64,000 nucleotides of DNA from Candidatus Latescibacterota bacterium (GTDB lineage Bacteria; Krumholzibacteriota; Krumholzibacteriia; WVZY01): NCBI GenBank assembly GCA_963791045.1, contig CAWBQK010000004.1, forward strand, positions 32,001 to 96,000. Direction: 5' to 3'. This document shows, one piece after another, positions 5,840 to 34,844 of the stretch. Each line of letters opens with the position of its first letter. Positions within the stretch are counted from its first letter, which is position 1. The translations under genes were made by a program, and so were the position numbers. Under the pieces are notes generated by a model. It was not told the origin of the DNA. It did no database searches and was given only the letters and a program-made list of their open reading frames with translations.

Positions 5840-7360
5840 CTATAAGTATTCTCCCCTGCGCTTGAGGCTCAGTGTGATTCCACCGCCACCAAGACCCAAC
5901 ATGATCACGGACTGGACCATCGTCTTCCACTGAATCGTCTCCGACATGAAGATTGAATCAGCGAAGAACAAGACACCGGCAACCCCAAGTATCGCATAAA
6001 CCACGATCATGATCTTCCAGGCGTTGCGGTTTGTCTCCGGAGTGTCGTCGGCGAAGAATTTGTTGTAGAGAAGCATACCGAGAAAACAAACCACGCCGAG
6101 TACGGCAAAGATCCCCCAGAACAACCGAATATGCGAGAGAACATTTGCCTCGAGCGCCACGCCCGCCTGCACGAGGTCGGCAGGTGGAACCACCGGGATA
6201 AGAATCTTATCGTACATAATCGCGCCGAAGTTGGCGCCGAAGAGGCTGCCGATCACGCCGTAAAGGAACGCGTATCCCATATACACGGCCACGTTGTCCT
6301 TTGGCGCGACGAGCCCCACGTAACTGTAATATTTCGGATGCGCCGTCATCTCACCAACAGAGAACACGGCGATGCCGATGAGAAACCACCATGGACCGCT
6401 TGTTAACGCAAGAAGCAGGAATCCAAGTGCTCCAATCACAATTCCGGCGGACATCACCGGGAGCGGCTTAATATCCCTGCATATTCGACTGACGAGAATC
6501 ACACCGAGGATGATCGTCGCCGCGTTGACAATCGTGACGAACTCTGCATCGAAGGTGAAGAATTTGAGAACGGGAATGTGCGACATATATTCGGTAACGA
6601 CTGCTCGGTTGACGAAGTCCCGCAGGTACCAGAGTGCCGATCCGAACATCTGGAAGTAAAGAATCCAGAAGGTCGAATAAACCAGGATCATAAGCATGAA
6701 GCGCGAGTCGCCAAGAACCATGAGCGCCTCGTGCGCGGTGTCCCGCGCGCTCTTTGTGTTCTCTGGCTTTCCCGCGGGATCTTTGTAGAAGAACACCGTG
6801 GGGATGAGCATCAGGAAACACCAGATGGCCGAGTTCAAGAATACGTACTGCCAGCTGATTCCCTTAAGAACATTGACGATAAACGGTGCGATGAAAGCGC
6901 CCAGGTTGATGCACCAGTAGTAAACGCCGAAGCCGAATCCGCTGTTCTCTTTGGTTGTGGTCCGCGCCACAGTGCCGGTAATGATCGGCTTGAAGAGACC
7001 GCTACCCGCCGCCATAATGAGCAGGAAGAGGAAGACGAGACCGTACGAAGTGAAGTTCCCCGCCGCAAAATAACCGATGGACAGAAGCGAAAACGCGACG
7101 AGCAGCATCTTGCGGTAACCCAACCGTTCGGCAAGCGCGCCGCCGGCGATGGGCATGACATATGTCAGGGCGTAGACGAATCCCTGGAGGAATCCGACCG
7201 ACTCGACGCTGAACTTGAGATGATCATGGAGATAGACGGCGAGGATGGCGTTGAGACCGTAGTACGCCCCCCGCTCGAAAAACTCGAACATGTTGGCGAG
7301 CCAAAAAGTCCCCGGGAGGCCGCTCTTTCCCCCAGCCTTGGTCGTCACATCATCGCTCAT
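5840..7360 (-). CDS. MFS transporter, POT/peptide-transporter-like
   Basis: EFFERGAYYG (ExxER-like), GGALAERLGYRK motif A, GSGLFKP, 12+ TM segments. Confidence 0.9.
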   Translation of the reverse strand: MSDDVTTKAGGKSGLPGTFWLANMFEFFERGAYYGLNAILAVYLHDHLKFSVESVGFLQGFVYALTYVMPIAGGALAERLGYRKMLLVAFSLLSIGYFAAGNFTSYGLVFLFLLIMAAGSGLFKPIITGTVARTTTKENSGFGFGVYYWCINLGAFIAPFIVNVLKGISWQYVFLNSAIWCFLMLIPTVFFYKDPAGKPENTKSARDTAHEALMVLGDSRFMLMILVYSTFWILYFQMFGSALWYLRDFVNRAVVTEYMSHIPVLKFFTFDAEFVTIVNAATIILGVILVSRICRDIKPLPVMSAGIVIGALGFLLLALTSGPWWFLIGIAVFSVGEMTAHPKYYSYVGLVAPKDNVAVYMGYAFLYGVIGSLFGANFGAIMYDKILIPVVPPADLVQAGVALEANVLSHIRLFWGIFAVLGVVCFLGMLLYNKFFADDTPETNRNAWKIMIVVYAILGVAGVLFFADSIFMSETIQWKTMVQSVIMLGLGGGGITLSLKRRGEYL

Positions 7361-20202: not shown

Positions 20203-23200
20203 CTATTTCAAAAGCACCATCTTCTTTGTAAGCGTTTTGTTGCCTGCTTGCAACCTGTAAAAGTAGACACCCGAACTGACGGGGCTTCCCGCCGCGCTCT
20301 GTCCGTTCCAGCTGACCTGTTTGAATCCAACGTCCATGACACGGTCGACGAGCGTGGCTACACGCTGACCCTGGACATTGTAAACGATGAGTGTCACCTG
20401 CTGTTTTTGCGGCACGGTGAACGCTATCGTCGTGGTCGGGTTGAACGGGTTCGGATAGTTCTGTTTAAGGGCAAGCCTGATCGATCTTGTCTTAACCTCC
20501 ACAGCCGCCGACAGCACTTCGTTGCCGTCGCTGAGTACAATTCCCATTGAGTACAAATAGTCTTCACCCGGACGCGCGCCCTGGTCGAGAAATTCGCGTT
20601 TCTCGACGGCGATGAGTCCCTCGGTGTTCGCGATTGAGACGGCGGATGTCTTAACATCCCGCCGGTAGATCTTGTAGCCGGCGACCTCTTCATCGGAGAT
20701 CACATCCCATGCGAGGTGAACGCCCACGTCGATCGCCTCGGCGACAAAGCTCTGGATAAATACGGGTACCGGCGCGTCAATCACTACGCGCACCGTATCG
20801 AGCTTGACCAGGTTCGGCACTTCGACCGGGGATACTCGATAAATGATCAACTGTTCGAGATGATCTCGAATCGCTGGGATGACCAGATACGCCGGAGGCG
20901 GCGCGAACGAGTCCCCCGGCGCCAATACCGGAGTGATACCGCCAAGCGATGTCGCGTCAGCCGCGATCATTGCCGCGGGAGACGCGGCGAGAATCCCGCC
21001 ATCCGATCTCAATGCGGGTGGAACGGTTTCCGACAACGTGGCGGGTCCGACCGTCGACACCTCATAGGTGAACGAATAGTCCCTGCCCGATACGTTTTTC
21101 ATCTCGAAGCCGCCGAGATCGAGAAACGGCACCTGCGAAAACGCCGGGATGGTCAAAAGATCGGCAATAAACTCGATCTCGACAAACGACGTATTGAGGA
21201 GCGTGACCGTCTTCGGCCCGGAGTTCGTCACGACGGCGGTACCGGTTCCCCTCGGGTCAAATACGAGTACCTCGGGATCCTCGCCCGCGTACACCGAGTC
21301 GACAACCTCCCAGGTGACCTGGAACGGAGGCAACGTCGACTCGTCGAGCGGAGATACCCCAATCGCGCCCTGGATATCGATTTCGATCACTTCAATGACG
21401 TCGTTTTCTTCCTGGATGAGATAAAGAAGCGTTCCGTCGGGATTGATCGTGACTGACTTGGTCTTGCTGCCGCCGCGGACGGTCGCAACGACCGTGTTCT
21501 CGTTCGCGCTGTTCGGAACGATGTCGACGATCAGCACGTCGCCGTCGGTTGTCAAAATGATCAGGAGCGATCCGTCGGGATTGATAGTCATGCTCTTTGA
21601 CGACTTGCCCGTCTTGACCGACGCGACCACGCTGTAACTAAGATCGCCCGCATTCAATACAACGTAACCCTCGTCGGTGCCCGTGTAGAGCAAGCTCCCG
21701 TCGGGGTTAATGGTCACGCTCTTCGTTCCCTTGCCCGATCCCACACTCGCCACCACTGCATGGTGGTTTGAGCTTTGCGAGTCGGCATCGATAATGTCCA
21801 CATTCTTTGTGAAATCAGACCCCGCGTTCACGCAGTACACCCACGAACCATCCGGGCTGACAACCACGTCCGTTGGGAAAGCGCCCACGACGAGCGTCTC
21901 CACGACCTGGTTGTAGAAAACCGACAGTGGATCCACATCGATTATCGACAGCGTTCCCGATTCAAAGTTCGGCACATATACGAATGTCCCTTCGGGATGC
22001 ACGTCAATCGAGATGGGATGGTCCCCCACGGTTATGCCCGGAAGCGACGTAGCGGTGGTCATGTCCACGGGAATCACCATGTCCCCTTCGGGGCTTACCG
22101 TGTACGCCCGCGTTCCGTCGGGTGTCACCACGGCGCTATTGGTCGCCGTGCCCGTCCCAATCGTAGCTACAACCTCGTCGGATGTCACCGGATTCGGGAC
22201 CAGAACGCTGAACGCGACCGCATTGGACGTGTCGGCGCCGTTATACACGCGGAGCGAGTTCTCTCCCCCGTCAACACTCACTGGAATGGTGACATTGAGA
22301 TAGTCGTATCCCCCTTCGCTGGGGATCGCCTCGACCGAATTGAAGAACACCTTGTTTTGCGCCGCCGTGGGGTTAAAACCAACCCCGCCCAGGACAATTG
22401 TAACCGCCGACGTGGCGCTCGGCGGACTGACCGAGCTCAAATTGAACGGAGGCGCCGCTTCCGTGGTAAATACCTTGGTCGACGGATTATTGAGCGCCCC
22501 GGTGTTGATGTCCTCCACGCCGCTTGTCACTTCGAGTGTATACGACGTGCTGAACTCGAGTTGAGTGTGTGGTGTGATCGACACCAGGCGTGAATCGTCG
22601 GTGAACCCGAACTCGCCCTTGACCGCCGCCGTATCACCCGTTTTATGCAGATAAACAGTGTGTGTGTCAATCGTGGCGGTCGCCACACCGCGACTAAAAG
22701 TCAATGCCACGGTGGTTGTCACGGCTACTCCCGATGCACCATCGGCCGGCTGCACATCGACCAATTGCAGCGGAAGCGTCTGGGGATCGACAACCCCATC
22801 GGCTGTAAATGTCAGCGGTGATCCCACCAGGCCCTGCGCGGTCGCCGTTACCGACTGCGCGCCTACCGTCGAACCTAATGTCCAGCTGACTTCGGCGTAC
22901 CCCGATGAATTTGTTACCGCCACCTGCGTCGTGGTGTTGGTTGTCGTGAACTTACCCCGCCGGTCACGACGTCGAATGTCACCGCGACTCCGGAGGCCGG
23001 TCCGTTGGTTCCAACGACCTGGACTCTCAGCTTTGCCGGAAGAGACTGGTCGATGGTGCCTGTTTGTGCGTCACCGGAGACTTTCACAATCGTGTCCGCT
23101 ACCGCATAGTCGAATACCTGAAGAAGGTTGTCATCCCCACTCACGGCATAGAGCCGTCTGCCGTCGATGCTGTACTCCTGATCGACATTCCCGCCCGTAA

Positions 23201-26200
23201 AGAACGGCGTATCGAACAGCTGATAGGATTCGAAAATAGCATCATCGAAGTGGAACGAGCAGAGTCCCGATCCCGATTGATGGAACACAATTCGTTTCTC
23301 GTTTGGCGACACGTCGATATTTTGACCGTTGAGAGTCGGCGGCGCCCCGGAGATCCCAAAACCATAGGTGTGTTCCTTGTTGTATATCAGGGTATCCGGC
23401 CTGTCGATCTCGATGAGATACACATAGTGATAGTCGTTGACCTCATCGTCGGTCAGGACAAAACAATTGCTTCCGTCGGGCACGACCGAAATGGACAACG
23501 GCTGATTCCGGAAATCAGGAAGGGGCGGTACTTCCGGCGAGGGAAGCAACAGGGTATGCACGCGTTGCCCGAAGCTGACGCTTGTGGAATCCACGTCCAA
23601 GACTGTTACAGAATGCGCGCCGCCAAGAGTCGCGTAGGCATGGGACCCATCGGGGTTGAACACGATATCGGTCACGGCATTGACATGGAATGTATCAACA
23701 ACCGCATTTTCCGCCGGGCCGCCGGCGTAAGTGTTCACATGCAGAATCACGCTGCTGCTCGCATCATTGACGAGAAGCATCTCGCCGTCGGGGCTCATCG
23801 CCATCTCCTGCGGAGAATTGAACATCCAGAAAACCGTCGACACGTCTCCAATAACCGTCCCGTACCCCGGACTTGACCGATCGATATCTATCACTTTCAC
23901 CGAGTTGTCCAGCGGAACGCTCGCGTACGCCCTCTTGCCGTCGGGGCGAATAACGATGTCATACGCGGGGTCGGCGCCCCAGGACGCTTCCGCCACCAGC
24001 TGGTTGAACGACGAGCTGGCAGGATCGGTATCGACAATCGCCACCGTGCCCACGTCCGTGCCGACGACGAGTTGGTCACTCGTCGGTGACATGGCCATCG
24101 CAGCCCCCAGGTTCTTGTCCGTGTACAACTGCGTTGAAGAAGCGGATCGCAGCAGTTGCGTTTCCAGCAAGGTGGGCAGGACCTCGATGCTCACGATATT
24201 CGTCGCTTCGTCGCCGAGAGCGCTGACCTTCCTTATAAACATCGAGCCATTTCCAACGTTTGCCGAATACGGGATGCGGAAACTGACCGCCCTGCCGGTG
24301 GTCCGGATGGGTGCGTAGTTGTACCCGTTTCCTATCGCGTCGACAAACCGGCAAACAAGAGAGTCGGTGTAAACACCGAACCCTTCTCCCGCGGCGACAA
24401 TAATGGCGCCCGCGACGCCGGCATCGTGCGAGAGCGTCTTGATGACGGGTCCAGAGCCAATTCCCAGAACGACGAGGCGCTGAGTGTCCTCCTCGAGGGC
24501 ATAGGCGTACTGGCCGTCGGACGATACTTTCACATCAACAGGGTTCACGCCCGTCGGTATTGTTGATGCGACCGTCCGATATGTCGGGCTTCCGTCTATG
24601 AGATCGATTACATCGATGAAGTTGAGCTGCCTGTTGGCCGCGAACATATAAGACCCGGCGGGATTGATATCCCCGCCGCGGAGCGATCCGCTTGTGTTGA
24701 TATCATAGACTTTTGTGAATGTGCCGATCGCAACGATGGTCACCTGGCCGCTCGCGTCGGTCACATACACCCGTTGTCCCGCCGCGTCGACGACCACGTC
24801 TCTGGGATCGGCGCCGACACCGACATCGACAAGGAACGAATCGGGACCGGCATGAAATACGATTACCTTACCCGCACCCGAGGGTACCATCAGGTATTGG
24901 CCGGCCGGGTCGAACGCCCCTCCCCTTCGAAGGTTCGCATCGGGCGAAGCTATTCCGCCGATCTGTTTTCCGTAGGTGCTGCTTCCCAATTTCACATCCC
25001 ACACTTGCACCTCGCCCCCGGCGGTTGGAACGTACGCCCTGTTTCCCGAGGGTCGAACAATCACACCGCGCGGTACGCCGTGAACGTCGAACTGGTTGAC
25101 GACGGTATTTGTCGCGATATCGATGACATAAACGGTGCTGTCGAGTTCGCTCGCCCCATAGACTCTCAATCCGTCCGGGCTGATCGCCACCTCGTTGAGA
25201 CCACCGGATATGGGGATCGGCGTTGTATTCAAGAATCCGGCGAGCGCCGGATCGACTTCGACCGCCATCGCGCCCGCGCTTGTCGCCACGTAGGCAACAT
25301 CCCCGTCGGGGGTAACGGCTACATCCCTCGGCACCGCGCCCGTAACCGCCGAACCCAACGAGTACCCGCGTGGAACACCCGTATCCTCTAAGACGACAAA
25401 GCTCACAGTATTGCTCGAGCCTGATTCGGTCGTCACATACACGTCGCCCGTCCCGGCCCCGGCCGGGACATTTGCGACCAACTGCGTGGCCGTCGCGCTC
25501 GTCGCGACCACACTAACTGTCCCGGTTCCCGCAGCGTCGGTAAAGATCACCACATTGTTCACGAGTGTCGACGAGAAACCATACCCGTTCACAACAACCA
25601 CGGAACCCGGCACACCCTTGTTGGCGACAAGACTCGTCAGCGCGAGCGACGGCGCCGCTTCCGTTTCAAAGAAGAACTCATAGCCGGAGCTCATCGGATT
25701 ACCGTATTTGTCGGTGATACCCGTCCTCAGCGTACACAGATAGGTCGTCGCATAGTTGAACAACCCCGTCGGCGTAAAAGACAGTACCTTCCCGTCCGGG
25801 CTTACCACACCGCTTCCACCCACACCCTGGAACAACGTGTTGTCGTATACCCGGAAATTCCCGGAGACGGAATTGTGGTCGATCGGCTCATCGAACTGAA
25901 TCACAACAGCCGCGTCGGCGGAAACGTCTGACTCCGACATATTTGGGCTGTGGCTCACGACGCTCGGTCCGGTCGTATCCACATTTGTAACGACGACAAA
26001 TCCGGACACGGGCCCGGCGATATTGATTGGAGCGCGGATCAGCGGATCCTCACTGGAATTGTCTCCCGTGTTCCAGTACTCGCCCGGGAAATTCGTCACC
26101 GCCGTTGTTTCAACAAGCGCATTGACATAATCGGGGAGCATATATCCGATGGAGGATGATCCGTCCAACGGTTGAATTGACAACCAGTAAACGCCCGGTG

Positions 26201-29200
26201 GGACGCCGACAAACTGAAACCCGCCGTCGGGCAGCGAAAAGTCCGACGCAACCATTTCGACGCTTGTAGTGTCCGTCAGAAATACCGCGACACCCGGCAC
26301 GCCGGCACCGAGGTAGTTTTCCACGCGGCCTTCGAGCCGGTTGGCGAGTCCGGCCCATCCGCCGGCATAATACGCTTTCTGGAAGATCGTTTTGTCTTCG
26401 GTTTTTAGCGTTCGTGCCTCAATCCCCGATGGAAGCACATAGAACATTGTCGAGTTTATATTCGGCGAATGCGAGATGCCGTACATGTGCCCCGCTTCGT
26501 GTGTCGCGACGCTTTCGAGATCCACATCCCCACCAGTCCCAGTGGTCGAAAATGTCTTCGCGGGGTTGAATATCATATCGGCGTCTATAATCTGTCCCGG
26601 CCGATATAACCGGTTGTTGACCATCGTCGGTTCTATCGCTGAAGTGGCGATGCCTACGGCCAGAGTATGCGCACCAAAGTCGTAGTCGAAATCACTGAAC
26701 GTCACGAAGTTCTTGCCGTCCCCGGCGACAGCCACATCCCAGTCAACCGTGCCACTGTACAGCGGGCTCATCTCCGTCCCGATCCCCGGAATCACACTCC
26801 ACGTCGCCATGGCGTTCAAAATCGCCGAAAAGTCGGTGCCGTCACCAATATTGGGCGCCCCGTCCAGATGAATGTAATACCGAAGCGTATCGTTGGGTCC
26901 CCAGTATTCGATATGCCGCGCGCCGAGATAGTCATCGAGACAGCCGTCGCCGTCGCGATCAAAGAACGAAGCGTCTACCAGGGGACAGCTGTCGAACGCG
27001 TAGTAAACGCCGTCACCGTCCGCGTCCGGTTCATCGAGGGAAACCACCCATGCGGCGCCGTTGTCGTCGCTCGCATTGTCGTCACCTCGATGCCCGATCA
27101 GCAGATCGTCTATTCCATCCAGATCGGTATCCCAGAGCTGCGTGAGAGATGAACCGAAATCATTTTCGTCTCCAAGCGTGCCCCCGAATCCGCCGCTTGT
27201 CGCGCTAATCTTCCCGCGCGACTTGACAACACCTGTTGAATCGAGCAAAAGAATATACACCGCGCCAACGTCAGTCCCTCCGTCATCGTCATTTATCGCG
27301 GTAACCGCGAGTTCGTTTACCCCGTCGCCATCCATATCTTCGAGGGCGGCAGCCGCGTATCCAAACGCCGCGGACGCTTCCAGCGTGACCCCGAACAGAC
27401 CGTCAAAGGAACTGATCTTTTGTTGATCGTCCACCCATCGGTCGTCCCGCAGCATCAGAATCCACACGGCGCCGGCATCCGTATTGCCATCGTCGTCGCC
27501 GATGCAACCCACGGCCAGGTCATTGATGCCGTCACCGTTGATATCCCCGAGATTCGCGAGCGACGTCCCGAAGTAGTCATTGTCATCGAGGACACCGGCG
27601 AACCCGCCGCTGGTCTCGTTGGTTTTTGACGCCGAATCCACCTCGATGTCATCCAACGACAGAATCCACACGGCGCCGTGGCTGTTTCCGTTGTCGTTGT
27701 CGTTTATCGCGCCCACGGCCAGTTCCTCGGTGCCGTCCCCATCGAGATCCCCCAGGTGTGCGAGAGAATATCCAAAGAAGTCACCGTCATCGAGTGTGCT
27801 TTCAAACCCGCCAGTAGAGGTCGCAATCTTGTAATGGGATTTGACCGTGCCGTCCCTGTTGAGAAAGAGTATCCACACGGCGCCCCTGTTGGCGTTTGGC
27901 GGCGTGCCGCCGTCATCGTCGAGGGGCGCTCCGACGGCAATATCCGAGACGCCATCGCTATCAAGATCCCCCATATCCGTCACGGATATTCCAAACTGGT
28001 CAAACGGGTCGAGGGCTCCCGTGAACCCACCGGCATTGACGCCGATCTTCTGGTGCCAGGCCACCGTTCCGTCCGGATTCATAAAACAAATCCAGACAGC
28101 CCCGACCGAGGCTCCTCCCACCTCGTCACCCGACGCGCCAATTGCGAGATCGGGAATATCGTCGCCATTGAGGTCGCCGAGATTTGCCATCGACGAACCC
28201 AGAGCCACCGTGTCGAGAATCAAGTCATTGAATCCGCCTTCGGTATCGCTGATTTTCTGGTGCGACCCAACCAGCTGCGACGCGTCCATAAAGAGAACCC
28301 ACGTCGCGCCGCGATCTGTGCCGCCATCGTCGTCCTGTTCGGCGCACACGATAAAATCATTGTACGTGTCGCCGTTTAGATCGCCGACCATCGCCACGCC
28401 ACTGCCAAACCAATCGATGACGTCCAGCGACCCCGCAAACCCGCCTATGCCTTCGCCGATTTCCTGTTGTCCGGCCACCGTCCCGTCGTCCGCAAGATAG
28501 ACAATCCATACCGAACCGTTTTGCGCCCCCGACGCACTGTGTGCCCCCACGAGGATGTCCTCGACACCATCGGTGTTGTAGTCACCAATCGCTGTCACGG
28601 CGTTTCCAAAATAATCGACGATCGAAAGGGTGCCCCCAAAGCCACCATCCAAAGCACTTATCTTCTGCTCGGACAACACGGTGCCGTTATCGTTCATAAA
28701 CAGAATCCATACCGCTCCGGCCCAATCAGCACCATCGTCGTCATATTTGGCCCCGACGGCGAGTTCCGTTACGAGATCGCCATCAAGATCGCCAATCGCC
28801 GTCAACCGATGCATCCAAAAAGTCTTCCGAGTCGAGCACGCCACCAAACCCCCATCCGTCGAACTGATCTTCTGTTGCGCCGACACCTGTCCGGTTGAAT
28901 CCAAAAACAGCACCCATATCGCCCCAGCATCTATGCCCCCATCATCGTCTTGTGCCGCCCCGACGACGATATCTTCGAAGGTGTCCCCGTTGAGATCTCC
29001 AATTCCGCAGACCGAGTACCCAAAAAAGTCCCGGTCCAAAAGCGTTCCCGCGAAACCGCCATCCGTCGCGCTGATCTTCTGATGCGACTTAACCGTACCG
29101 TCCGTACGCAAAAAGAGAAGATAAACCGCACCCTTTGCGTCTCCGCCATCGTCATCGAACGGAGCGCCGACTACGAGATCCTGGACCCCGTCGTTGTCGA

Positions 29201-29639
29201 TATCTCCGGGACTCCCGACCGAATACCCAAACCCATCATAGTCGCCAAGAACAACGGTAAACCCGCCTCGCTCGCTCGCAATCATCTGGCGGTATTTCAC
29301 GGTTCCGTCCGAGTTGAGAAAAAGAATCCAAACGGCCCCGCGCCCATCCCCACCAAACGTATCCCGTCTCGAACCGACCGCCACATCGTCAATTCCGTCA
29401 CCATCGAGATCGCCCAGCGACGTGATCGCATTGCCCATGCGATCGCCGTCATCGAGGGTTTCCTGAAATGAGGCCAGAGTGCCGTCGAGTTTGAACTCGG
29501 CTTTTACCTGGGCATCGGCGACACCGGAAAACAGAACCGAAGCGCTCAGCAACACCATGACACACCGTGCGCCAAACTCGGATGATGGGCGCTCGGCAAG
29601 CATCACTTTTTTAATTAGCTTACTCAGCATCGTTCCCAC
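20203..29639 (-). CDS. Giant secreted FG-GAP / matrixin (M10-like) metallopeptidase / Ig / YVTN beta-propeller protein with FlgD-Ig (T9SS-like) tail, ~3145 aa; frameshift at ~22956
   Basis: Track ORFs 22914-29639 and 20203-22923 join by one G (TGGGKFTTTNTTTQVAVTN). 12 FG-GAP repeats, HEAGHMYGISH + STM Met-turn, Big_5- and IPT/TIG-like segments, YVTN-type blades, NYPNPFNP tail. Confidence 0.85.
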
Positions 29640-29642
29640 TCC

Positions 29643-30203
29643 CTATTTGCGCCCCAGCGCGTCGTTGATGAATTTATCGAGTGGCGTTCTGTTCGCCTGC
29701 AGAGCCGGTCCGCCGTCCATTTGCGACGGCGCTCCTAACACCTCCGCACCCTCGATCATCGGCCGTTTGACAAACGCTTCGCCCGAATCGGGATCGCGTT
29801 CTATTTCGAATTTGCCTTGCGAAAATCCGGCGACACGAAAATCACCGGTATCCATCCGATCAAGAAAGAGCAGAACCTCCTCACCATCCCGCCACGAGAG
29901 CGACCCATGAACGTGCATCCTTATCGTCCCCACGTCACCGCCAAGCTGGAGAACCCGGATTGTGCCACCACCCTGCCCCTTGTAGGTTTCATCGAGCACA
30001 ACTGTCGTCTCGGTAAAAATCTTGGTGCGCCCTTCGTTCCAGAACGACCTCACTTCCGATACCTTGCCGCGCGCGACCAGCGCCGACTCGTCACCCATCT
30101 GTCGAGAACTCACGAACTCTAACTGAGTGGCCATGACAATTGGCGCTGCCATGGCGACCAGGACTATGGCTGCTACAAACACGATTGTTGATTTCATGAT
30201 CAA
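29643..30203 (-). CDS. Secreted hypothetical protein, OB-fold/TIMP-like candidate
   Basis: Signal peptide MKSTIVFVAAIVLVAMA (ATG at 30197 is an alternative start); LVARGKV..IFT..V..TYKG..GG..GEEVLLFL pattern; 3 bp upstream of the giant gene. Confidence 0.75.
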   Translation of the reverse strand: MIMKSTIVFVAAIVLVAMAAPIVMATQLEFVSSRQMGDESALVARGKVSEVRSFWNEGRTKIFTETTVVLDETYKGQGGGTIRVLQLGGDVGTIRMHVHGSLSWRDGEEVLLFLDRMDTGDFRVAGFSQGKFEIERDPDSGEAFVKRPMIEGAEVLGAPSQMDGGPALQANRTPLDKFINDALGRK

Positions 30204-30437
30204 TGTCCTCTCCTGACGAGCCTATACGGCATTCGCGGCGAACCGGATTCGGCCCGGGTCGCCGACAAACAACAAATTCTTTGACGCGATGATGTTTCTA
30301 TTTGAGCGGAAGTTGGACGAGGAAAACCCATTAGCGCAAGACCGCGCTTATCGCTCGACGAAAGCAGATATGACGAGGATGCCGACAGCTCGCCGGACAT
30401 TACTCGGACCCCCCTGGATACGTAATGTTAATGTCCT

Positions 30438-30466
30438 ATTATACCGCACAAACTAAAACGTGTAAA
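30438..30466 (-). promoter_or_regulatory. Sigma70 promoter TTTACA-17-TATAAT for the secreted-protease operon
   Basis: Perfect -10, 5/6 -35, 17-bp spacer. Confidence 0.7.
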
Positions 30467-30508
30467 GCACAATGTAATTTGAACTTAACCGACAGCCCGC
30501 CAACAATT

Positions 30509-30539
30509 TGGCCCCGCGGATTCATCACCCGCGGGGCCA
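30509..30539 (-). terminator. GC-rich hairpin downstream of transketolase, probable terminator
   Basis: 11-bp perfect stem TGGCCCCGCGG / CCGCGGGGCCA; U-tract is weak. Confidence 0.5.
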
Positions 30540-30599
30540 TCACCAACCAAAGTGTCAAAAAAACCTTACACCGGACCCACGCCCGGGCAACGCTCTCGA

Positions 30600-32960
30600 C
30601 TACTTCCCTTTAACGTATTTGACCACACCTTTGAAGAGGCTTTCCCCGTCAAGACCCGCTTCGGCGATCACCTTATCGGCCTGACCGCTGCCGAGGAAGT
30701 GTCCCTTCTCGAACGGATACCTGGTGTGCTTGCGGCCGTGTTCCGAACGAATCCACCGATACATCGTCGGCAGCGTGAAGCCGGTGATCCCCATAGCTTC
30801 TTCCTGAAGCGCGACGGGGAAAATCGCTTCCTGCTCGTCCGCGGATAGCGAGTCGAACAGTTCCGCACTGGCCACATAGTACACGTTGATATCGATCCCC
30901 TCTTTTGCGAGCATGGGGAGTGTCTCCTCAATAAAGGCGAACGTTATCCCGCTTCCCTGGAGGACCACCGTTCCGTCGCCCTTGCCGCTTGCTGCGCGCA
31001 GTTTGTAGACACCCGTCGCGGCGGCCGACACAGGGGCGAGTCCGAGCGCCTCGCGGTCAAGAACCGGCTCGTTTGGACGCGTGACGAACGGCGCGATCAC
31101 GCACGGGCGCTTCGCCAGCGTTTCCGAAACAACGGTGAACATCTCCTGTGGATCCCACGGGGTAAGCGTCATCACGGTACCCTTCGGAAAGTTTTCCTGG
31201 AGGAGCTGGAGCGCCTGCGGATCGGCGTGCGTCGGGCCGTCTTCTCCCGTCTTGACACCCGCGTGGGCGCAGATCAAGAAGTACGGGTTGTACGGTTCGC
31301 CCGGTACGATCGCGTCACGCGCCTGACCGCCGATCGCGTGAAGACGCGAGGCAATGTGGCCGAGCGCCGCGATAAACGCGCCGTAGGACGATCCCGCGCC
31401 GATGTGGCGGCCGTAGGACGACAACCCGGCGAGAATACCGGTCATGGCGTCCTCACAGATTCCGCCTATCGAGTAGATCCGCGACCCAGGGTTGGTCACC
31501 GCGTTGTAGTACCCTTCCGGGAACCCTTTGCCAGCGGTAAGAACGCTTGTCGAACCGAGAAGATCGGCGGCCGCGGCAAAAATGGCCCCACCGCTCGCCT
31601 TGTTGTAATAGTTGAGTACTTTCCCAAGTTCTCCGCGCAGGGTCGTCTTGCCCCCTGCTTCGAGTTTGAGTTCCTTGGGAATCCCGCCTCTTTCTGCCTC
31701 AGCCGTCTTGTAGATCGCTGTGACATCCGGCGCTTTGTCGCGCGGCTTGCGTTCGAGGCAATTCAGGCGCTCGCGTGAATCCTTCAAGCGCTGAGCGAAC
31801 ATATCGACGTTTACGAATTTCTCGTCGAAGGTCTTCCTCACAACGAGAAGCGCATCCCAGAAGCACTGCTCCATCACATCGGCGTCCGCCCCCCCACCGC
31901 ACCGCTGGCAGTTCTCCTCGCAAGAATCGAACTTCGCGCCCGTCAACTCGAGAAGCGGCGCTACCGCATCGTAGAAACCGTCCGTGCAGAGTTTATGTCC
32001 CGCGCCGTGCGACGCGCGTCCCTCGATCCCATACTTCCAACCCTTGGTCGTGCGGTACACGATTGCAGTCGGCTGACCGTTGTCGATCGTCCGCGCTTTT
32101 CTCTGCGCGGCCACGATCTGTTGAAAATTCCGGCCATCCTCGACATAAATCACATTCCAGTCGTGGAGGTACGCGAACTCCATCGGCGTCCACTGAACGT
32201 AATCGCCGGGTTCCTTGCCGTCGCGGCATACATGGTTGGAATCGATCGAAGCCTGGTTCCAGTCGATGTGCATGATCGCGTTGGCAAGAGACGCCGTCCC
32301 AACCGCCGCCATGGCCTCACCGACACGCCCGGGTGTCATCCCGCCTTCGCCCTCGACGATGTGGACCCGCGGAGCTTTTGCGCCGTAGTAGTCGGCGGCG
32401 CCATAGGCAAGACCCATCGAAGTCGCAACACCGACACCCGACGCTCCCGTCGACAGACGCACAAACGGCGTCGCCGGTGTGGGATGTCCATCGAGCGGTT
32501 TGGAATTAAACTTCTTAAAGAGCGGTGTATTCGTGATCGGATTGCGCCGGAAACCAAGAAGGTCCTCGAGACGCAGCTGCATCTTCACATTTGAAGGAAG
32601 CAGATCGGAAGCGCCCGCCCGCACAACTTCGTTCCTGAGCGCCCACATGGCATAAAGTCCCAGGGCCTTGTGTCCCGCCGCATATGAAATCTGATCCGCA
32701 TCCCCACGATCAGGATCGGACACGTCATAATCCATCGCGTCGAACAAAATAGCTTCGACAAAACGCCCCGACGAAATCGATCCGCCCGGATGACCGGACA
32801 TGGGAACATAATTGTACATCACGGCGCACAGCGATCTGTAAACGCTGTCAAATGTCTCGAATGAAGTGAGTTCTTCATCCGAGAGCGGGTTGCCGACTTT
32901 TTTGAGCTCTTCGCTGATATCTATATAGACTGCTCTTCTCGGTCCAAACGCGAATGCCAT
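30600..32960 (-). CDS. tkt: Transketolase-family ThDP enzyme (long, atypical)
   Basis: GHPGG, AGHK, DGHP, GEG..DWN, SHG, ADLLGS, GICEDAM, GEDGPTH, TRP motifs. Confidence 0.88.
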   Translation of the reverse strand: MAFAFGPRRAVYIDISEELKKVGNPLSDEELTSFETFDSVYRSLCAVMYNYVPMSGHPGGSISSGRFVEAILFDAMDYDVSDPDRGDADQISYAAGHKALGLYAMWALRNEVVRAGASDLLPSNVKMQLRLEDLLGFRRNPITNTPLFKKFNSKPLDGHPTPATPFVRLSTGASGVGVATSMGLAYGAADYYGAKAPRVHIVEGEGGMTPGRVGEAMAAVGTASLANAIMHIDWNQASIDSNHVCRDGKEPGDYVQWTPMEFAYLHDWNVIYVEDGRNFQQIVAAQRKARTIDNGQPTAIVYRTTKGWKYGIEGRASHGAGHKLCTDGFYDAVAPLLELTGAKFDSCEENCQRCGGGADADVMEQCFWDALLVVRKTFDEKFVNVDMFAQRLKDSRERLNCLERKPRDKAPDVTAIYKTAEAERGGIPKELKLEAGGKTTLRGELGKVLNYYNKASGGAIFAAAADLLGSTSVLTAGKGFPEGYYNAVTNPGSRIYSIGGICEDAMTGILAGLSSYGRHIGAGSSYGAFIAALGHIASRLHAIGGQARDAIVPGEPYNPYFLICAHAGVKTGEDGPTHADPQALQLLQENFPKGTVMTLTPWDPQEMFTVVSETLAKRPCVIAPFVTRPNEPVLDREALGLAPVSAAATGVYKLRAASGKGDGTVVLQGSGITFAFIEETLPMLAKEGIDINVYYVASAELFDSLSADEQEAIFPVALQEEAMGITGFTLPTMYRWIRSEHGRKHTRYPFEKGHFLGSGQADKVIAEAGLDGESLFKGVVKYVKGK

Positions 32961-32993
32961 CGTACGCTCCTTTCGCGAGCGGTTACCTCATAC

Positions 32994-34292
32994 TTAATAG
33001 AGATGCTCTCCAGCTTCAAAGAACCGCTTGAAGCCATCCTTGTCGAGGCTCGCCGCCTCGATCCTCCGCACACCCTCCTTGAGCGATTCCATATCGGTCG
33101 CCGTCGAGAGCCGCAAGAAATGCTTTCCCTCACTCCCTATCGCGCCGAACGACCGTCTGTCCATCGTGGCAACGCCATGCTCGTAGAGTGCAAACATCTG
33201 GAACATCGTCGACGGACTCGTCACCTTCTTTGTTTTGGCGTCCAGCGATTCGTACATCTCGATCATGCCGAGTTTTCTGCAAGCGCCGCCAATATTGGGG
33301 AATACGTAGAAAGCGCCTTCGGGCTTGTTGCACGAGACACCATCGATCGCGTTGAGCGCGTCGACAACCATATCCCGACGCTCCTGGAATTCGGTAGTCA
33401 TCGATGCGACAATGCCGCGGTTCTCATCACCATCGAGCGCCTGCTTACCGGCTTCCTGGATGAACGGTGGCGTGCACGAAATAATGTTGATGTTGAACTG
33501 CCGGAAGACCATCGCCTCTTCGACCGTGGGAAGCACGGCATAACCGAGCCGCCAGCCCGTCATCGCATACGACTTGGAGTGCCCGCTCACGAGAACGGTC
33601 TTCTCCGCCATACCCGGGAACGACACGATGCTCCGGTGTTTGTTTCCGTCAAAAATGATGTCCTCGTAGACTTCGTCCGAGTACACCCGGATGTCGGGGC
33701 TCGCCTTGTCGTTGATAACCCGCGCGATTTCCGTGAGGTCGGCTTCGGTGAGAACGCCTCCGGTCGGGTTCGAGGGCGAGTTGATTATCAGCACTTTTGT
33801 TTTTGGCGTGATCAAACGCTCAATATCGGACGCGTCAAAACGGAAGTTCTTCTCTTCCTCGAGATGGAGAGGCACCGGTTTCGCTCCGAGGAACGTCACC
33901 CACGATTCGTAGATTGGAAAGCCGGGGCTCGGATAGATGACTTCGTCGCCGGGATTGACAAAAGCCATCATCGTGTACGATATAGGCGGCTTCGCGCCGG
34001 TTGTAACGACGACTCTCTGTGGGTCGACGTCGATTCCCCGCGTCCGCTTAACCTGGGCCGCGATACTTTCCCGAAATTTGATGATCCCCTGCGGATCCGT
34101 GTAGTGTGAATTGCCGGCGTTGATATTCTTGATGCCGACATCATTGATATTCTGCGCGCTGTCAAAATCCGGCTCGCCGAGGTTGAGCTTGATGATCTTC
34201 ATCCCCTTCGCCTCGCACCGCTTGATATCATCACCGATTTTGAATGCGTTTTCCGTTCCGAGATTCAATACTCGATCAGCGAACACGCCCAT
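32994..34292 (-). CDS. PLP-dependent aminotransferase class I/II
   Basis: GEPDF, NSPSNPTG, SDEVY, SKSYAMTGWRLG (PLP lysine), GAFYVFP; likely start MGVFADRV at 34292. Confidence 0.93.
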   Translation of the reverse strand: MGVFADRVLNLGTENAFKIGDDIKRCEAKGMKIIKLNLGEPDFDSAQNINDVGIKNINAGNSHYTDPQGIIKFRESIAAQVKRTRGIDVDPQRVVVTTGAKPPISYTMMAFVNPGDEVIYPSPGFPIYESWVTFLGAKPVPLHLEEEKNFRFDASDIERLITPKTKVLIINSPSNPTGGVLTEADLTEIARVINDKASPDIRVYSDEVYEDIIFDGNKHRSIVSFPGMAEKTVLVSGHSKSYAMTGWRLGYAVLPTVEEAMVFRQFNINIISCTPPFIQEAGKQALDGDENRGIVASMTTEFQERRDMVVDALNAIDGVSCNKPEGAFYVFPNIGGACRKLGMIEMYESLDAKTKKVTSPSTMFQMFALYEHGVATMDRRSFGAIGSEGKHFLRLSTATDMESLKEGVRRIEAASLDKDGFKRFFEAGEHLY

Positions 34293-34336
34293 GGGAGCAC
34301 CCCCGCGAAAAAATACAAAATTAGGTCCCAACACTT

Positions 34337-34370
34337 AAAACAAAAGGGGCAGAATATACATTCCGCCCCT
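34337..34370 (-). terminator. Riboswitch expression-platform terminator
   Basis: Minus strand AGGGGCGGAAT-GTAT-ATTCTGCCCCT-TTTGTTTT; its 5' arm overlaps the 3' strand of aptamer-2 P1. Confidence 0.8.
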
Positions 34371-34551
34371 GTCCTTGTTACCTGTGAGATTATCCTCTTT
34401 ACGAGGACTTACTCCTTCGGTGTCCAGGCTCACGGCCTGGCGCTTTCCAGGAGACTCCGAAACTCCAGTCCTTTTGCCTGAGAGTTTCGATCGGCCGCGG
34501 CCGTTCTTGCCCCTTCGGCGCCCGCTTTTCGCGAGTCTCTCCTGTGAGCCC
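34366..34551 (-). ncRNA. Tandem glycine riboswitch (two aptamers)
   Basis: Aptamer 1 (34551-34460): CAGGAGAGAC..CGCCGAAGGGGCAA..AAACTCTCAGGCAAAAGGACTG. Aptamer 2 (34454-34366): CTGGAAAG..CACCGAAGGAGTAA..AATCTCACAGGTAACAAGGACAG. Both carry the hallmark glycine-aptamer segments and a pairable P1. Confidence 0.92.
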
Positions 34552-34844
34552 GGTATGATTAAAAGCGATTCTTGCATATTGGTTAACCAAAGGCAACAGA
34601 AAACGACGACTGGTCAGGGGCCCGAAATCCTGCCGCTTTTTGACATCTAACGGCCTCGAAATTGACAAATATCAAATGAAAAAGTGACCTGTTGTCCATT
34701 GCTGCCCGGCGGGTCAACACCGCCCCATTCACGCCACCACCAAAATCGCTACCCGAACAAGAACGAAGATTCTTTTAGCCGGCAATCTTCAACTAAATTT
34801 GCCGCGCGGGTTGTATTATCAGCGTTCTGTGCTATGTTTAGACC

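Follow-up and report, generated by a model that had tools for sequence, protein, structure and literature searches.

A tandem glycine riboswitch upstream of an aminotransferase–transketolase-like gene pair in a Latescibacterota bacterium, with a possible link to glycine breakdown

The window analysed here is a 64,000-nucleotide stretch of contig CAWBQK010000004.1 (positions 32,001 to 96,000) from a Candidatus Latescibacterota bacterium. It contains a leader with two glycine aptamers followed by two genes on the minus strand, with the following features (coordinates of the window):

34568..34596, minus strand: candidate promoter (TTGCCT and AAGAAT, 17 nt apart), read from the sequence, some 14 nt upstream from aptamer 1
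34457..34554, minus strand: glycine riboswitch aptamer 1 (RF00504, 63.7 bits)
34359..34460, minus strand: glycine riboswitch aptamer 2 (RF00504, 38.8 bits), conserved in relatives with compensatory pairs
34337..34370, minus strand: intrinsic terminator (expression platform), 11-bp stem AGGGGCGGAAU/AUUCUGCCCCU followed by UUUUGUUUU, the 5' arm overlapping the 3' strand of aptamer 2 P1
32994..34292, minus strand: class-I (AspAT-like) PLP aminotransferase (AT), 432 aa from the ATG at 34292 (PF00155, 204 bits)
30600..32960, minus strand: long transketolase-like (TK-like) ThDP enzyme, 786 aa, with weak Pfam matches to Transketolase_N, Transket_pyr and Transketolase_C_1
30510..30587, minus strand: two closing hairpins, a small one with U7 (30587-30557) and a 12-bp GC-rich one (30538-30510)

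Both minus-strand aptamers, which had been proposed in an earlier note on this DNA, exceed the RF00504 gathering score of 32 bits. Aptamer 1 matches the full model (positions 1-94) in the Rfam scan with E = 7e-11; aptamer 2, with the core GGAAAG versus the consensus GGAGAG, is absent from the Rfam listings for the whole window and for a 451-nt segment, and was recovered when positions 34335-34462 were scanned alone and in the whole-genome search. The P1 stem of aptamer 2 is CUCCUG/CAGGGG, and its 3' strand (34371-34366) shares AGGGG with the 5' arm of the terminator, in agreement with the overlap described in the earlier note. The terminator scan identifies an 11-pair stem with 6 G-C pairs at 34370..34345, followed by TTTTGTTTT ending at 34337; its minimum free energy is -21.1 kcal/mol (z = -3.8), and none of 200 shuffled sequences folds equally well. 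In relatives, this stem is kept with G-C to G-U and A-U changes; across six homologous leaders, including that of a distant deltaproteobacterial MAG, the overlap is retained and 13 of the 59 pairs are changed on both sides. Judged from its sequence, the leader is a standard tandem glycine riboswitch of predicted ON design, in which P1 and the terminator would be mutually exclusive; the glycine-ON architecture postulated previously is upheld by this overlap and by the conservation of the design with compensatory changes. The candidate promoter scores 8/12, under the threshold of the promoter scan, and its blocks TTTTCTGTTGCC and AGAA are conserved in all four aligned relatives. The RF00504 search of the genome detected no glycine riboswitch other than the tandem in front of the AT gene; the gcvT-PA-PB genes, located on contig C15, have none.

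The AT gene starts at the ATG at 34292, which is 44 nt past the U-tract (about 45 nt in the earlier note) and is preceded by GGGGG 7 nt upstream; the listed GTG at 34334 is an unlikely start given its position inside the terminator tail. The AT stop at 32994 and the ATG of the TK-like gene at 32960 are separated by the expected 33-bp gap, which contains AAAGGAG as a ribosome-binding site and in which the scan between the genes found no promoter-like or terminator-like site. A weak promoter-like site (9/12) is located within the AT gene at 34110-34081. Strong hairpins follow the TK-like stop at 30600, where a hairpin was seen in the earlier note, all the coordinates and distances of which are correct; the 116-nt region past this stop folds with -59 kcal/mol (z = -5.6), a value equalled in 0 of 200 shuffles. 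A promoter-like site with a score of 11/12 beyond these hairpins (30466..30438, minus strand) would serve the next gene. This layout suggests that the AT and TK-like genes form one co-transcribed unit. The stretch is contained in none of the sequencing runs recorded as RNA, which speaks neither for nor against expression.

The top NCBIfam match of the AT is aspartate transaminase (281.8 bits versus a cut-off of 617), and the relatives that it has in PDB are Asp/aromatic/prephenate aminotransferases from archaea and bacteria (E = 6e-71). By sequence, the protein is AspAT-like, unlike the known class V serine:glyoxylate enzymes, and homology of this kind does not reveal the substrate. A paralogue with 46% identity is encoded elsewhere in the genome, and relatives at 67-72% identity occur without a TK-like gene or a riboswitch.

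The TK-like protein scores 133 bits against the NCBIfam transketolase model, for which the cut-off is 488. The top Foldseek matches of its AF2 model (pLDDT 86) are bacterial transketolases (TM 0.76-0.79, about 20% identity); all the Foldseek matches listed are transketolases, and only transketolase chains are among the matches listed in the PDB sequence searches. In an alignment with the canonical transketolase of the same genome, all residues of the latter that take part in catalysis or phosphate binding are kept (H57, H97, H159, H318, R442, S470, E503, H566, D574, H578 and R628); in the same order, we take these to correspond to H26, H66, H100, H261, R358, S385, E411, H461, D469, H473 and R520 of the E. 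coli enzyme. The His pair that holds the CH2OH group of the donor (H159 and H578), the sugar-phosphate site and D574 are invariant. Published work on transketolases describes S385 as a phosphate contact (PMC5073344) and hydroxypyruvate as a substrate used with release of CO2 (PMC5573996). The retained His pair and phosphate site would fit hydroxypyruvate or a ketose as the donor and a phospho-aldose as the acceptor. The transketolase of the earlier note is not the housekeeping enzyme: a separate canonical tkt gene (475 bits) is located elsewhere in the genome, and the TK-like protein scores far under the curated cut-offs. Canonical dxs is present as well. We assign the protein to a conserved, uncharacterised long subfamily that is distinct from canonical transketolase and is found in at least 583 places in species genomes.

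Comparison of TK-like loci reveals a widespread pairing with the AT. The AT gene is present within 44 of 117 loci and absent from the other 73, and most loci also lack a riboswitch; at 36 loci, it is adjacent to the TK-like gene on the same strand (24 upstream, 12 downstream), and the two genes remain neighbours, in either order, in many phyla. The surroundings of most loci are variable and housekeeping-like, and no conserved neighbours besides the AT were found among 118 loci. Glycine riboswitches were detected in only 9 of the 99 distinct TK-bearing genomes, and in 6 of these 9 the riboswitch sits elsewhere, at gcvT where examined. The riboswitch-AT-TK order is shared by L002, L051, L053, L204, L214 and L223 (with tight spacing in L002, L051, L204, L214 and L223). 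The AT subfamily is encoded by the first gene after a glycine riboswitch in at least nine contigs; this arrangement, which involves tandem riboswitches in several lineages, is seen in contigs that are Latescibacterota-like or belong to Krumholzibacteriia or Thermodesulfobacteriota, where it is followed by a TK-like gene, a glyoxylate/hydroxypyruvate-reductase-like dehydrogenase gene, and/or glycine-cleavage and lipoylation genes. In particular, one deltaproteobacterial MAG has the order riboswitch-AT-GcvH/PA-GcvPB-lipoate ligase-Lpd-LipA-TK, L224 has TK-riboswitch-AT-lipoate ligase-GcvH, and L140 has Lpd-GcvH-TK-(epimerase family)-Kbl. In L215, L218 and L226, the riboswitch and AT are followed by a 2-hydroxyacid dehydrogenase whose nearest matches are GhrB and glyoxylate reductase (357-414 bits against a cut-off of 455); in one case, L127, the dehydrogenase after the AT is accompanied by a TK-like gene. 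The characterised relatives of this dehydrogenase accept both glyoxylate and hydroxypyruvate, so that its presence does not separate the two possible routes. For the first time, these related genomes link the widespread AT-TK pair to glycine breakdown.

The explanation that we favour, with a probability of about one half, is a glycine-induced operon in which the AT would make hydroxypyruvate and the TK-like enzyme would consume it by decarboxylating ketol transfer to a sugar phosphate. Upon glycine binding, P1 of aptamer 2 would form and sequester the AGGGG required by the terminator, and RNA polymerase would read through into the AT gene and then into the TK-like gene 33 bp behind. Glycine would be converted to serine via the glycine cleavage system and serine hydroxymethyltransferase (the latter was not found in the 81%-complete genome). 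The AT most likely would convert serine to hydroxypyruvate, with 2-oxoglutarate or pyruvate as the acceptor, the conversion of glycine to glyoxylate being less likely; the TK-like enzyme would then decarboxylate the oxo acid in an irreversible ThDP-dependent reaction and pass the glycolaldehyde unit to an aldose phosphate, which would bring carbon from amino acids straight into the pentose-phosphate pool. In related operons with a dehydrogenase after the AT, the pathway might run from glycine via serine and hydroxypyruvate to glycerate, in a photorespiration-like manner. The glycine/serine 2-oxo-acid route of the earlier note receives comparative support from the riboswitch-AT arrangement followed by TK-like or dehydrogenase genes, often together with glycine-cleavage genes. 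The analysis shows the RNA elements, the gene order, their conservation, the fold and the active-site residues, from which we infer the ligand response, co-transcription and the substrates of the two enzymes.

A glyoxylate route, in which the AT would be a glycine:2-oxoacid aminotransferase and the TK-like enzyme would pull this unfavourable reaction forward, either by decarboxylating glyoxylate and placing C1 onto an aldose phosphate or by using glyoxylate as the acceptor of a ketose-phosphate ketol, appears unlikely. The switch senses glycine itself and has the AT as its first gene in the contigs mentioned above, glyoxylate reductase is the top-scoring match of the dehydrogenase encoded behind this AT in other operons, and the search of the genome revealed no malate synthase, so that another glyoxylate sink would be needed. 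However, glyoxylate lacks the CH2OH group that the invariant H159 and H578 hold in the ketol donor; its use as an acceptor would yield a C4 oxo acid requiring more dedicated enzymes, and there is no third conserved neighbour. Moreover, the AT is strung together with glycine cleavage genes in several operons, which better fits a sequential glycine-to-serine conversion than two competing sinks. Somewhat more doubtful is the possibility that the two proteins are ordinary isozymes, a sugar-phosphate transketolase (Xu5P + R5P/E4P) and a general aspartate/glutamate aminotransferase, with no common oxo-acid intermediate, which would be co-induced at amino-acid plenty to redistribute nitrogen and supply pentoses. 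The transketolase fold and complete set of active-site residues, the aspartate aminotransferase family matches of the AT and the variable surroundings of most TK-like loci are all compatible with such roles, but the genome already encodes a canonical transketolase and an AT paralogue, the adjacency persists in both orders in many phyla, and other operons with a glycine riboswitch place the same AT beside a glyoxylate/hydroxypyruvate-reductase-like gene, pointing to a common 2-oxo acid.

In L140, the TK-like gene comes immediately behind Lpd-GcvH, and in L107 it closes the string GcvH/P-lipoate ligase-Lpd-LipA. Along with a weak PF22613 match of the protein, these positions could be taken to indicate an E1-like component that decarboxylates the 2-oxo acid produced by the AT and carries out the reductive acylation of lipoyl-GcvH, with re-oxidation by Lpd, that is, a 2-oxo-acid dehydrogenase without E2. 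This is very improbable considering the invariant transketolase sugar-phosphate site and D574, the exclusively transketolase matches listed in the structural and PDB sequence searches, the lack of a lipoyl-protein gene in the operon of the window, and the presence of GcvT in all five genomes checked, where the Gcv genes in the vicinity are as expected for an ordinary glycine cleavage system. We consider it equally improbable that the switch acts on the AT alone or not at all, with the TK-like gene expressed independently: co-transcription is deduced from sequence and the AT gene contains the weak 9/12 site, but the intergenic gap has no terminator-like site, and the riboswitch-AT-TK order recurs with tight spacing in the five loci listed above.

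Among known systems, the leader resembles the gcvT-type tandem glycine riboswitch of B. subtilis, a transcriptional ON switch in which the 3' strand of the second-aptamer P1 overlaps the terminator; both have two adjacent aptamers with conserved cores and the P1/terminator overlap, and the genes under control would in both cases serve glycine catabolism. Unlike the B. subtilis switch, the one described here precedes an AspAT-like AT and a long TK-like gene rather than gcvT-gcvPA-gcvPB, and the gcv genes of the genome itself are without a riboswitch. The regulon members named in the published surveys consulted on glycine riboswitches include glycine metabolism genes, transporters, sdaA, serA, serC and glcB. 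With transketolases (EC 2.2.1.1; E. coli TktA, yeast Tkl1, human TKT), the TK-like protein shares the three-domain fold, the cofactor-activating Glu, all of the active-site His residues and, besides the Asp, the Arg/Ser/His phosphate site; in contrast to them, it is about 120 residues longer at about 20% identity, carries inserts in front of H159 and behind N235 as well as a helical linker of about 120 residues, and contains GEGG in place of GDG and P210 where the canonical transketolase of the genome has Glu. Engineered transaminase-transketolase cascades in biocatalysis, which use serine-derived hydroxypyruvate, pair enzymes of these two kinds via the intermediate proposed here; these cascades are artificial, and no description of a natural co-regulated pair was found in the literature searched.

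The lower half of the photorespiratory and serine cycles consists of glycine decarboxylase with serine hydroxymethyltransferase, serine aminotransferase, hydroxypyruvate reductase and glycerate kinase. The L215 operon, which joins the riboswitch, AT, reductase-like dehydrogenase and glycine-cleavage genes, matches this order of reactions. The differences are that the AT belongs to class I rather than to the class V serine:glyoxylate type, and that in the window a ThDP enzyme occupies the slot of the reductase and would yield CO2 and a ketose phosphate instead of glycerate. Finally, sdaA is reported in glycine-riboswitch regulons of beta-proteobacteria and mycobacteria, where serine removal is induced together with the cleavage system (PMC3766115). 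The AT-TK module would similarly provide a serine-removing step under glycine induction, with the distinct chemistry of PLP transamination and ThDP-dependent transfer; since a serine dehydratase (sdaA) is also encoded in the genome, the module would add to this enzyme and is not its simple replacement.

The operon that encodes the 432-aa class-I aminotransferase (AT) and the 786-aa transketolase-like protein (TK-like) is preceded on the minus strand by two glycine aptamers, as the earlier note had described, and the Rfam scan with RF00504 that this note had called for matches the full model above the gathering score at both. The features of the leader and of the region downstream of the operon are the following (window coordinates):

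34554..34457, minus strand: glycine riboswitch aptamer 1 (RF00504, 63.7 bits against a gathering score of 32, model positions 1-94)
34460..34359, minus strand: glycine riboswitch aptamer 2 (RF00504, 38.8 bits against a gathering score of 32, model positions 1-94)
34370..34345, minus strand: intrinsic terminator from a terminator scan, an 11-pair stem followed by TTTTGTTTT
34596-34568, minus strand: predicted candidate promoter TTGCCT-17-AAGAAT, conserved in four aligned leaders
within 29643-30466, minus strand: promoter-like, near-consensus TTTACA-17-TATAAT (11/12) for the next gene

Aptamer 2 is masked in joint scans (of the whole window or of 451 nt) and is listed when 34335-34462 is scanned alone and in the whole-genome search. 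Its closing helix P1 in the Rfam alignment is CUCCUG/CAGGGG, and AGGGG, five of the six nucleotides of the 3' strand, is also the base of the terminator 5' arm (fold of -21.1 kcal/mol, z = -3.8), so that the dual use of this strand, which had been proposed previously, is seen here as well. Because AGGGG is common to both structures, P1 and the terminator are mutually exclusive, which is a glycine-ON design; the same overlap is present in a homologous locus (L185). Bound glycine would stabilize P1 of aptamer 2 and block the terminator, and transcription would then run through both genes. Among six homologous leaders, a small sample of related sequences, 13/59 predicted pairs are changed on both sides. 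The riboswitch belongs to a known class, and the RNA switch itself is ordinary.

The AT gene extends from an ATG at 34292, which is 44 nt past the U-tract, to a stop at 32994; the TK-like ATG follows at 32960 after a 33-bp gap containing AAAGGAG, and 3' of the TK-like stop there are two hairpins, a small one with U7 and a GC-rich one of 12 bp (region z = -5.6). The leader spacing (previously put at ~45 nt), the intergenic gap and the closing hairpin had thus all been read correctly. The flanking genes are unrelated to the operon: the upstream one encodes an amidohydrolase, and the downstream one a 2241-aa FG-GAP/Big_5 surface protein (20203-29639, minus strand). Besides FG-GAP repeats and Big_5, this surface protein has beta-propellers and an M10 peptidase domain; after it comes a Big_5 protein of 906 aa that carries a Por secretion (T9SS) sorting tail. 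A 186-aa ORF without a Pfam family is found ~235 nt downstream of the 11/12 promoter.

The earlier identification of the second gene as a transketolase holds for the fold and for the catalytic and phosphate-binding residues, but not for the family assignment. The Pfam transketolase-domain matches are weak (58.6, 40.2 and 22.3 bits) and those to the NCBIfam transketolase families TIGR00232 and NF004559 are below the cut-offs (133.2 versus 488 bits and 98.5 versus 682 bits, respectively); TK-like falls outside the curated transketolase equivalog, and the same genome holds a separate canonical tkt (475 bits, N domain) along with a canonical dxs. Given that both of these genes are present, the idea that TK-like stands in for DXP synthase or for the housekeeping transketolase was rejected. 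An AF2 model built with 24 homologues (pLDDT 86.1, pTM 0.89) contains the three-domain transketolase fold, and its best PDB folds in a Foldseek search are bacterial transketolases (target-normalized TM 0.76-0.79, ~20% identity, E = 3e-32).

The ThDP/Mg motif GDG-X(25-30)-N reads GEGG...DWNQ in TK-like (E205, N235), with the Asp to Glu replacement shared by nearly all family members. Further residues align with the canonical tkt, namely H57, H97, H159, H318, R442, S470, E503, H566, D574, H578 and R628, which we take to be the equivalents of E. coli H26, H66, H100, H261, R358, S385, E411, H461, D469, H473 and R520. These presumably comprise the cofactor-activating Glu, active-site His, the Asp that reads the acceptor 2-OH and the Arg/Ser/His phosphate site. 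All 11 are invariant in 24 family members, and all but H318 in a 10-sequence alignment. A contact of S385 with phosphate is described in PMC5073344. Compared with the canonical tkt, the protein has GEGG for GDG, P210 for a Glu, two inserts and a ~120-residue helical linker. With these residues kept, the predicted active site looks like that of a ketol transferase that binds sugar phosphates. The window genome encodes another long TK-like paralogue (814 aa; contig C13:204116-206560, or L039:1039-3483 in the fetched locus), whose gene overlaps that of a polyprenyl synthase at the end of the latter. GEGG and the transketolase histidines are present in this paralogue too, and it may represent a functionally distinct branch among the long transketolases.

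A protein search lists more than 100 relatives of TK-like of ~785 aa with 68-88% identity, annotated publicly as 'hypothetical protein' or 'transketolase'; the few named ones come from Latescibacterota, Krumholzibacteriota, Planctomycetota, Deltaproteobacteria and others. In a profile scan over one genome per species, the subfamily was confirmed at no fewer than 583 places in many, mostly uncultured, phyla, with MAGs of Opitutaceae, Gemmatimonadetes, Cyclobacteriaceae and Chitinophagaceae among the carriers; it is highly conserved (50-88% identity across phyla), and nearly all of its members come from genome assemblies of uncultured bacteria. As far as our searches reach, this long subfamily is uncharacterized. 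By tblastn, AT is present within 44/117 TK-like loci and is adjacent on the same strand in 36/117, upstream in 24 (52-82% identity to the window AT) and downstream in 12 (35-46%); L037, where AT precedes a TK fragment, is under the TK threshold and was left out of this count. All-against-all ORF clustering over 118 loci revealed no other real conserved neighbour of the TK-like gene (the many 'conserved' antisense ORFs inside the TK gene are false and were ignored). Four loci of Zixibacteria/Ignavibacteria (L016, L017, L029 and L031) share the order tryptophanase-family lyase (654.8 bits, above the subfamily cut-off), TK-like, AT, alanine racemase and NlpC/P60, which is another amino-acid-catabolic setting for the pair.

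The AT itself is a class-I PLP enzyme (PF00155, 204 bits versus a cut-off of 19.7). Its top curated matches are aspartate aminotransferases, the best being NF004769 with 281.8 bits against an equivalog cut-off of 617, and its solved-structure relatives are Asp, aromatic and prephenate aminotransferases. Judging from these matches, the predicted product is a class-I aminotransferase without an assignable named specificity.

Conservation of the riboswitch with orthologous gene pairs, a check suggested in the earlier note, is partial: the switch is kept with the pair in L002, L204, L214 and L223, and among the first 37 TK loci, scanned with Rfam, it is detected within 6 kb in L002 alone. (A strict aptamer regex, which matched the window and L002 alone, was replaced by these scans.) The riboswitch is present in all three of the closest metagenome relatives with upstream sequence (L051, L052 and L053; AT identity 79-82%), and in relatives whose AT identity is 67-72% both the riboswitch and the TK-like gene are missing. 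Whole-genome RF00504 searches identify a glycine riboswitch in 9/99 distinct TK-bearing genomes; the lack of the switch at the majority of TK loci is thus explained in large part by lineages in which glycine riboswitches are not used. The sole tandem riboswitch stands before AT in the window genome, G005, G049 and G051; the riboswitch is found before gcvT in G002, G003 and G033, and before a 2-hydroxyacid dehydrogenase in G035; for the remaining six of the nine riboswitch genomes, the TK-like gene is on another contig in 5/5 searched. The chromosome of a Latescibacterota MAG (G049, with loci L001 and L186/L206) carries the riboswitch and AT residues 5-117 at ~0.90 Mb, and AT residues 163-446 with the TK-like gene at ~2.57 Mb; this AT gene is split by rearrangement or assembly error.

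The link to glycine cleavage is apparent from several contexts. In the deltaproteobacterial MAG G005, one strand encodes, with short gaps, riboswitch, AT (51-60% identity, spread over two HSPs whose frames differ), an ORF of 608 aa containing GCV_H and GDC-P domains, GcvPB, lipoate-protein ligase, Lpd, LipA and TK-like. L140 has the order Lpd, GcvH, TK-like, an epimerase-family gene and Kbl (656 bits versus a cut-off of 460), and GcvPA-GcvPB are found a few kb upstream of TK-AT in L118 and L147. A pattern for the aptamer-2 variant, applied to genome contigs, yielded 29 loci; this selects one variant, so that the fractions are not general frequencies. Aptamer 1 was confirmed with Rfam beside the pattern in 9/9 sources checked. 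By tblastn, the first gene that follows the switch is AT in 9/29 of these loci (L204, L206 from G049, L214, L215, L218, L219, which is the L002 contig, L223, L224 and L226), with TK-like directly after AT in L204, L214, L219 and L223, and L224 has the order TK, riboswitch, AT, lipoate ligase, GcvH. Gcv genes are located downstream in 20/29 and nothing in two. Substitution of TK-like for the T-protein was considered and rejected, with GcvT present in 5/5 genomes checked. A conserved 140-aa ORF lies between the tandem riboswitch and gcvH in three Thermodesulfobacteriota contigs (L207:5692-6114, with a weak ParB_N match, L213:1566-1988 and L221:519-941), and L226 contains two tandem glycine riboswitches on the same strand 3.2 kb apart (3846-4043 and 7075-7271).

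The gene after AT in L215, L218 and L226 encodes a D-2-hydroxyacid dehydrogenase, and in the window operon TK-like holds this position. Among curated families the dehydrogenase scores highest with glyoxylate reductase (357-414 bits, where the cut-off is 455) and GhrB, and lower with phosphoglycerate dehydrogenase. Close homologues are found beside the riboswitch/gcv cluster in L210, L213, L220, L229 and L230, and in L127 one is directly after the TK-like gene. Taken together, these contexts indicate that AT pairs with a glyoxylate/hydroxypyruvate-reducing family, with TK-like or, as in L127, with both, and this pairing is the strongest pointer to the AT product. In L218 (6543-7999, Syntrophorhabdus MAG) the riboswitch, AT and reductase-like gene are followed by genes for a B12-binding protein and an MtmB-family methyltransferase, a hint that methylated amines or glycine betaine may feed into glycine here.

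It is highly probable that the AT/TK-like pair is glycine-induced and part of glycine/serine catabolism. The riboswitch, the glycine-cleavage and lipoylation genes and the reductase-like gene narrow the predicted role of TK-like to the 2-oxo acids of this catabolism. AT would convert glycine-derived serine to hydroxypyruvate by transamination, and TK-like would transfer the ketol unit of hydroxypyruvate to a phospho-aldose acceptor, releasing CO2; we put the probability of this full reading, glycine induction included, at about 0.5. Transketolases use hydroxypyruvate with CO2 loss according to PMC5573996, and a hydroxypyruvate-donor role for TK-like would fit the invariant histidines predicted to bind the donor CH2OH, as well as the phosphate site. 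The lack of a third conserved gene also fits the hydroxypyruvate route because both products are central metabolites. On the opposite side, SHMT was not found in the 81%-complete window genome, sdaA is present there, and phosphoketolase does not co-occur, all of which count against this reading. Of the sequencing runs listed as sharing sequence with 30400-34700, none is recorded as RNA, and the best DNA runs have no more than 0.14 of its words. Two related proposals were dropped: a module standing in for serine dehydratase (21/52 TK-bearing genomes have PF03313, including the window genome and G005, with no depletion), and coupling to phosphoketolase in the order hydroxypyruvate, Xu5P, acetyl-phosphate (strong XFP_N in 14/52 genomes, none in the window genome).

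The reductase family, with its glyoxylate and hydroxypyruvate activities, bears on a glyoxylate route for the AT/TK-like pair too; we regard that route as unlikely, the gene string riboswitch-AT-reductase-like-gcv having the order glycine-serine-hydroxypyruvate-glycerate, which favours serine to hydroxypyruvate for AT. The resemblance of AT to aspartate aminotransferases counts against the main reading. That the two proteins are plain isozymes co-induced with amino-acid catabolism is quite improbable in our estimate; a 46%-identical AT paralogue is encoded elsewhere in the same genome. Most TK-like loci are without AT and without a riboswitch, which also counts against the main reading. Independent expression of the TK-like gene, here placed directly behind AT, would be very surprising. 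An E1-like enzyme acting on lipoyl-GcvH, for which the lipoylation genes in the neighbourhood could be cited, is highly improbable, as all 35 sequence and 41 profile PDB matches are transketolase chains; every Foldseek match listed is a transketolase, with no E1 fold among them.

The AT/TK-like pair is absent from the accessible parts of the glycine-regulon surveys PMC2211319 and PMC3766115, and full-text literature searches found no paper describing a riboswitch-AT-TK-like operon, in agreement with the earlier view that this is not a described regulon. The finding has a testable chance of being a new pathway step, and the value of the riboswitch is that of a label, in that it ties a gene pair publicly annotated without function to glycine as its signal. 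If the hydroxypyruvate reading is true, the 'laboratory trick' of supplying transketolase with hydroxypyruvate would be a physiological pathway step, TK-like would be the first transketolase with hydroxypyruvate as physiological donor, amino-acid carbon would enter the pentose phosphates directly, and a natural enzyme pair would be at hand for transaminase-transketolase cascades. More tentatively, the pair might constitute a natural, unrecognized hydroxypyruvate shunt in which a dedicated decarboxylating transketolase loads C2 onto an aldose phosphate. The riboswitch-AT-reductase-like-gcv gene string mirrors the order of the photorespiratory and serine-cycle reactions, whereas in the proposed shunt the hydroxypyruvate reductase and glycerate kinase steps of a photorespiration-like route would be replaced.
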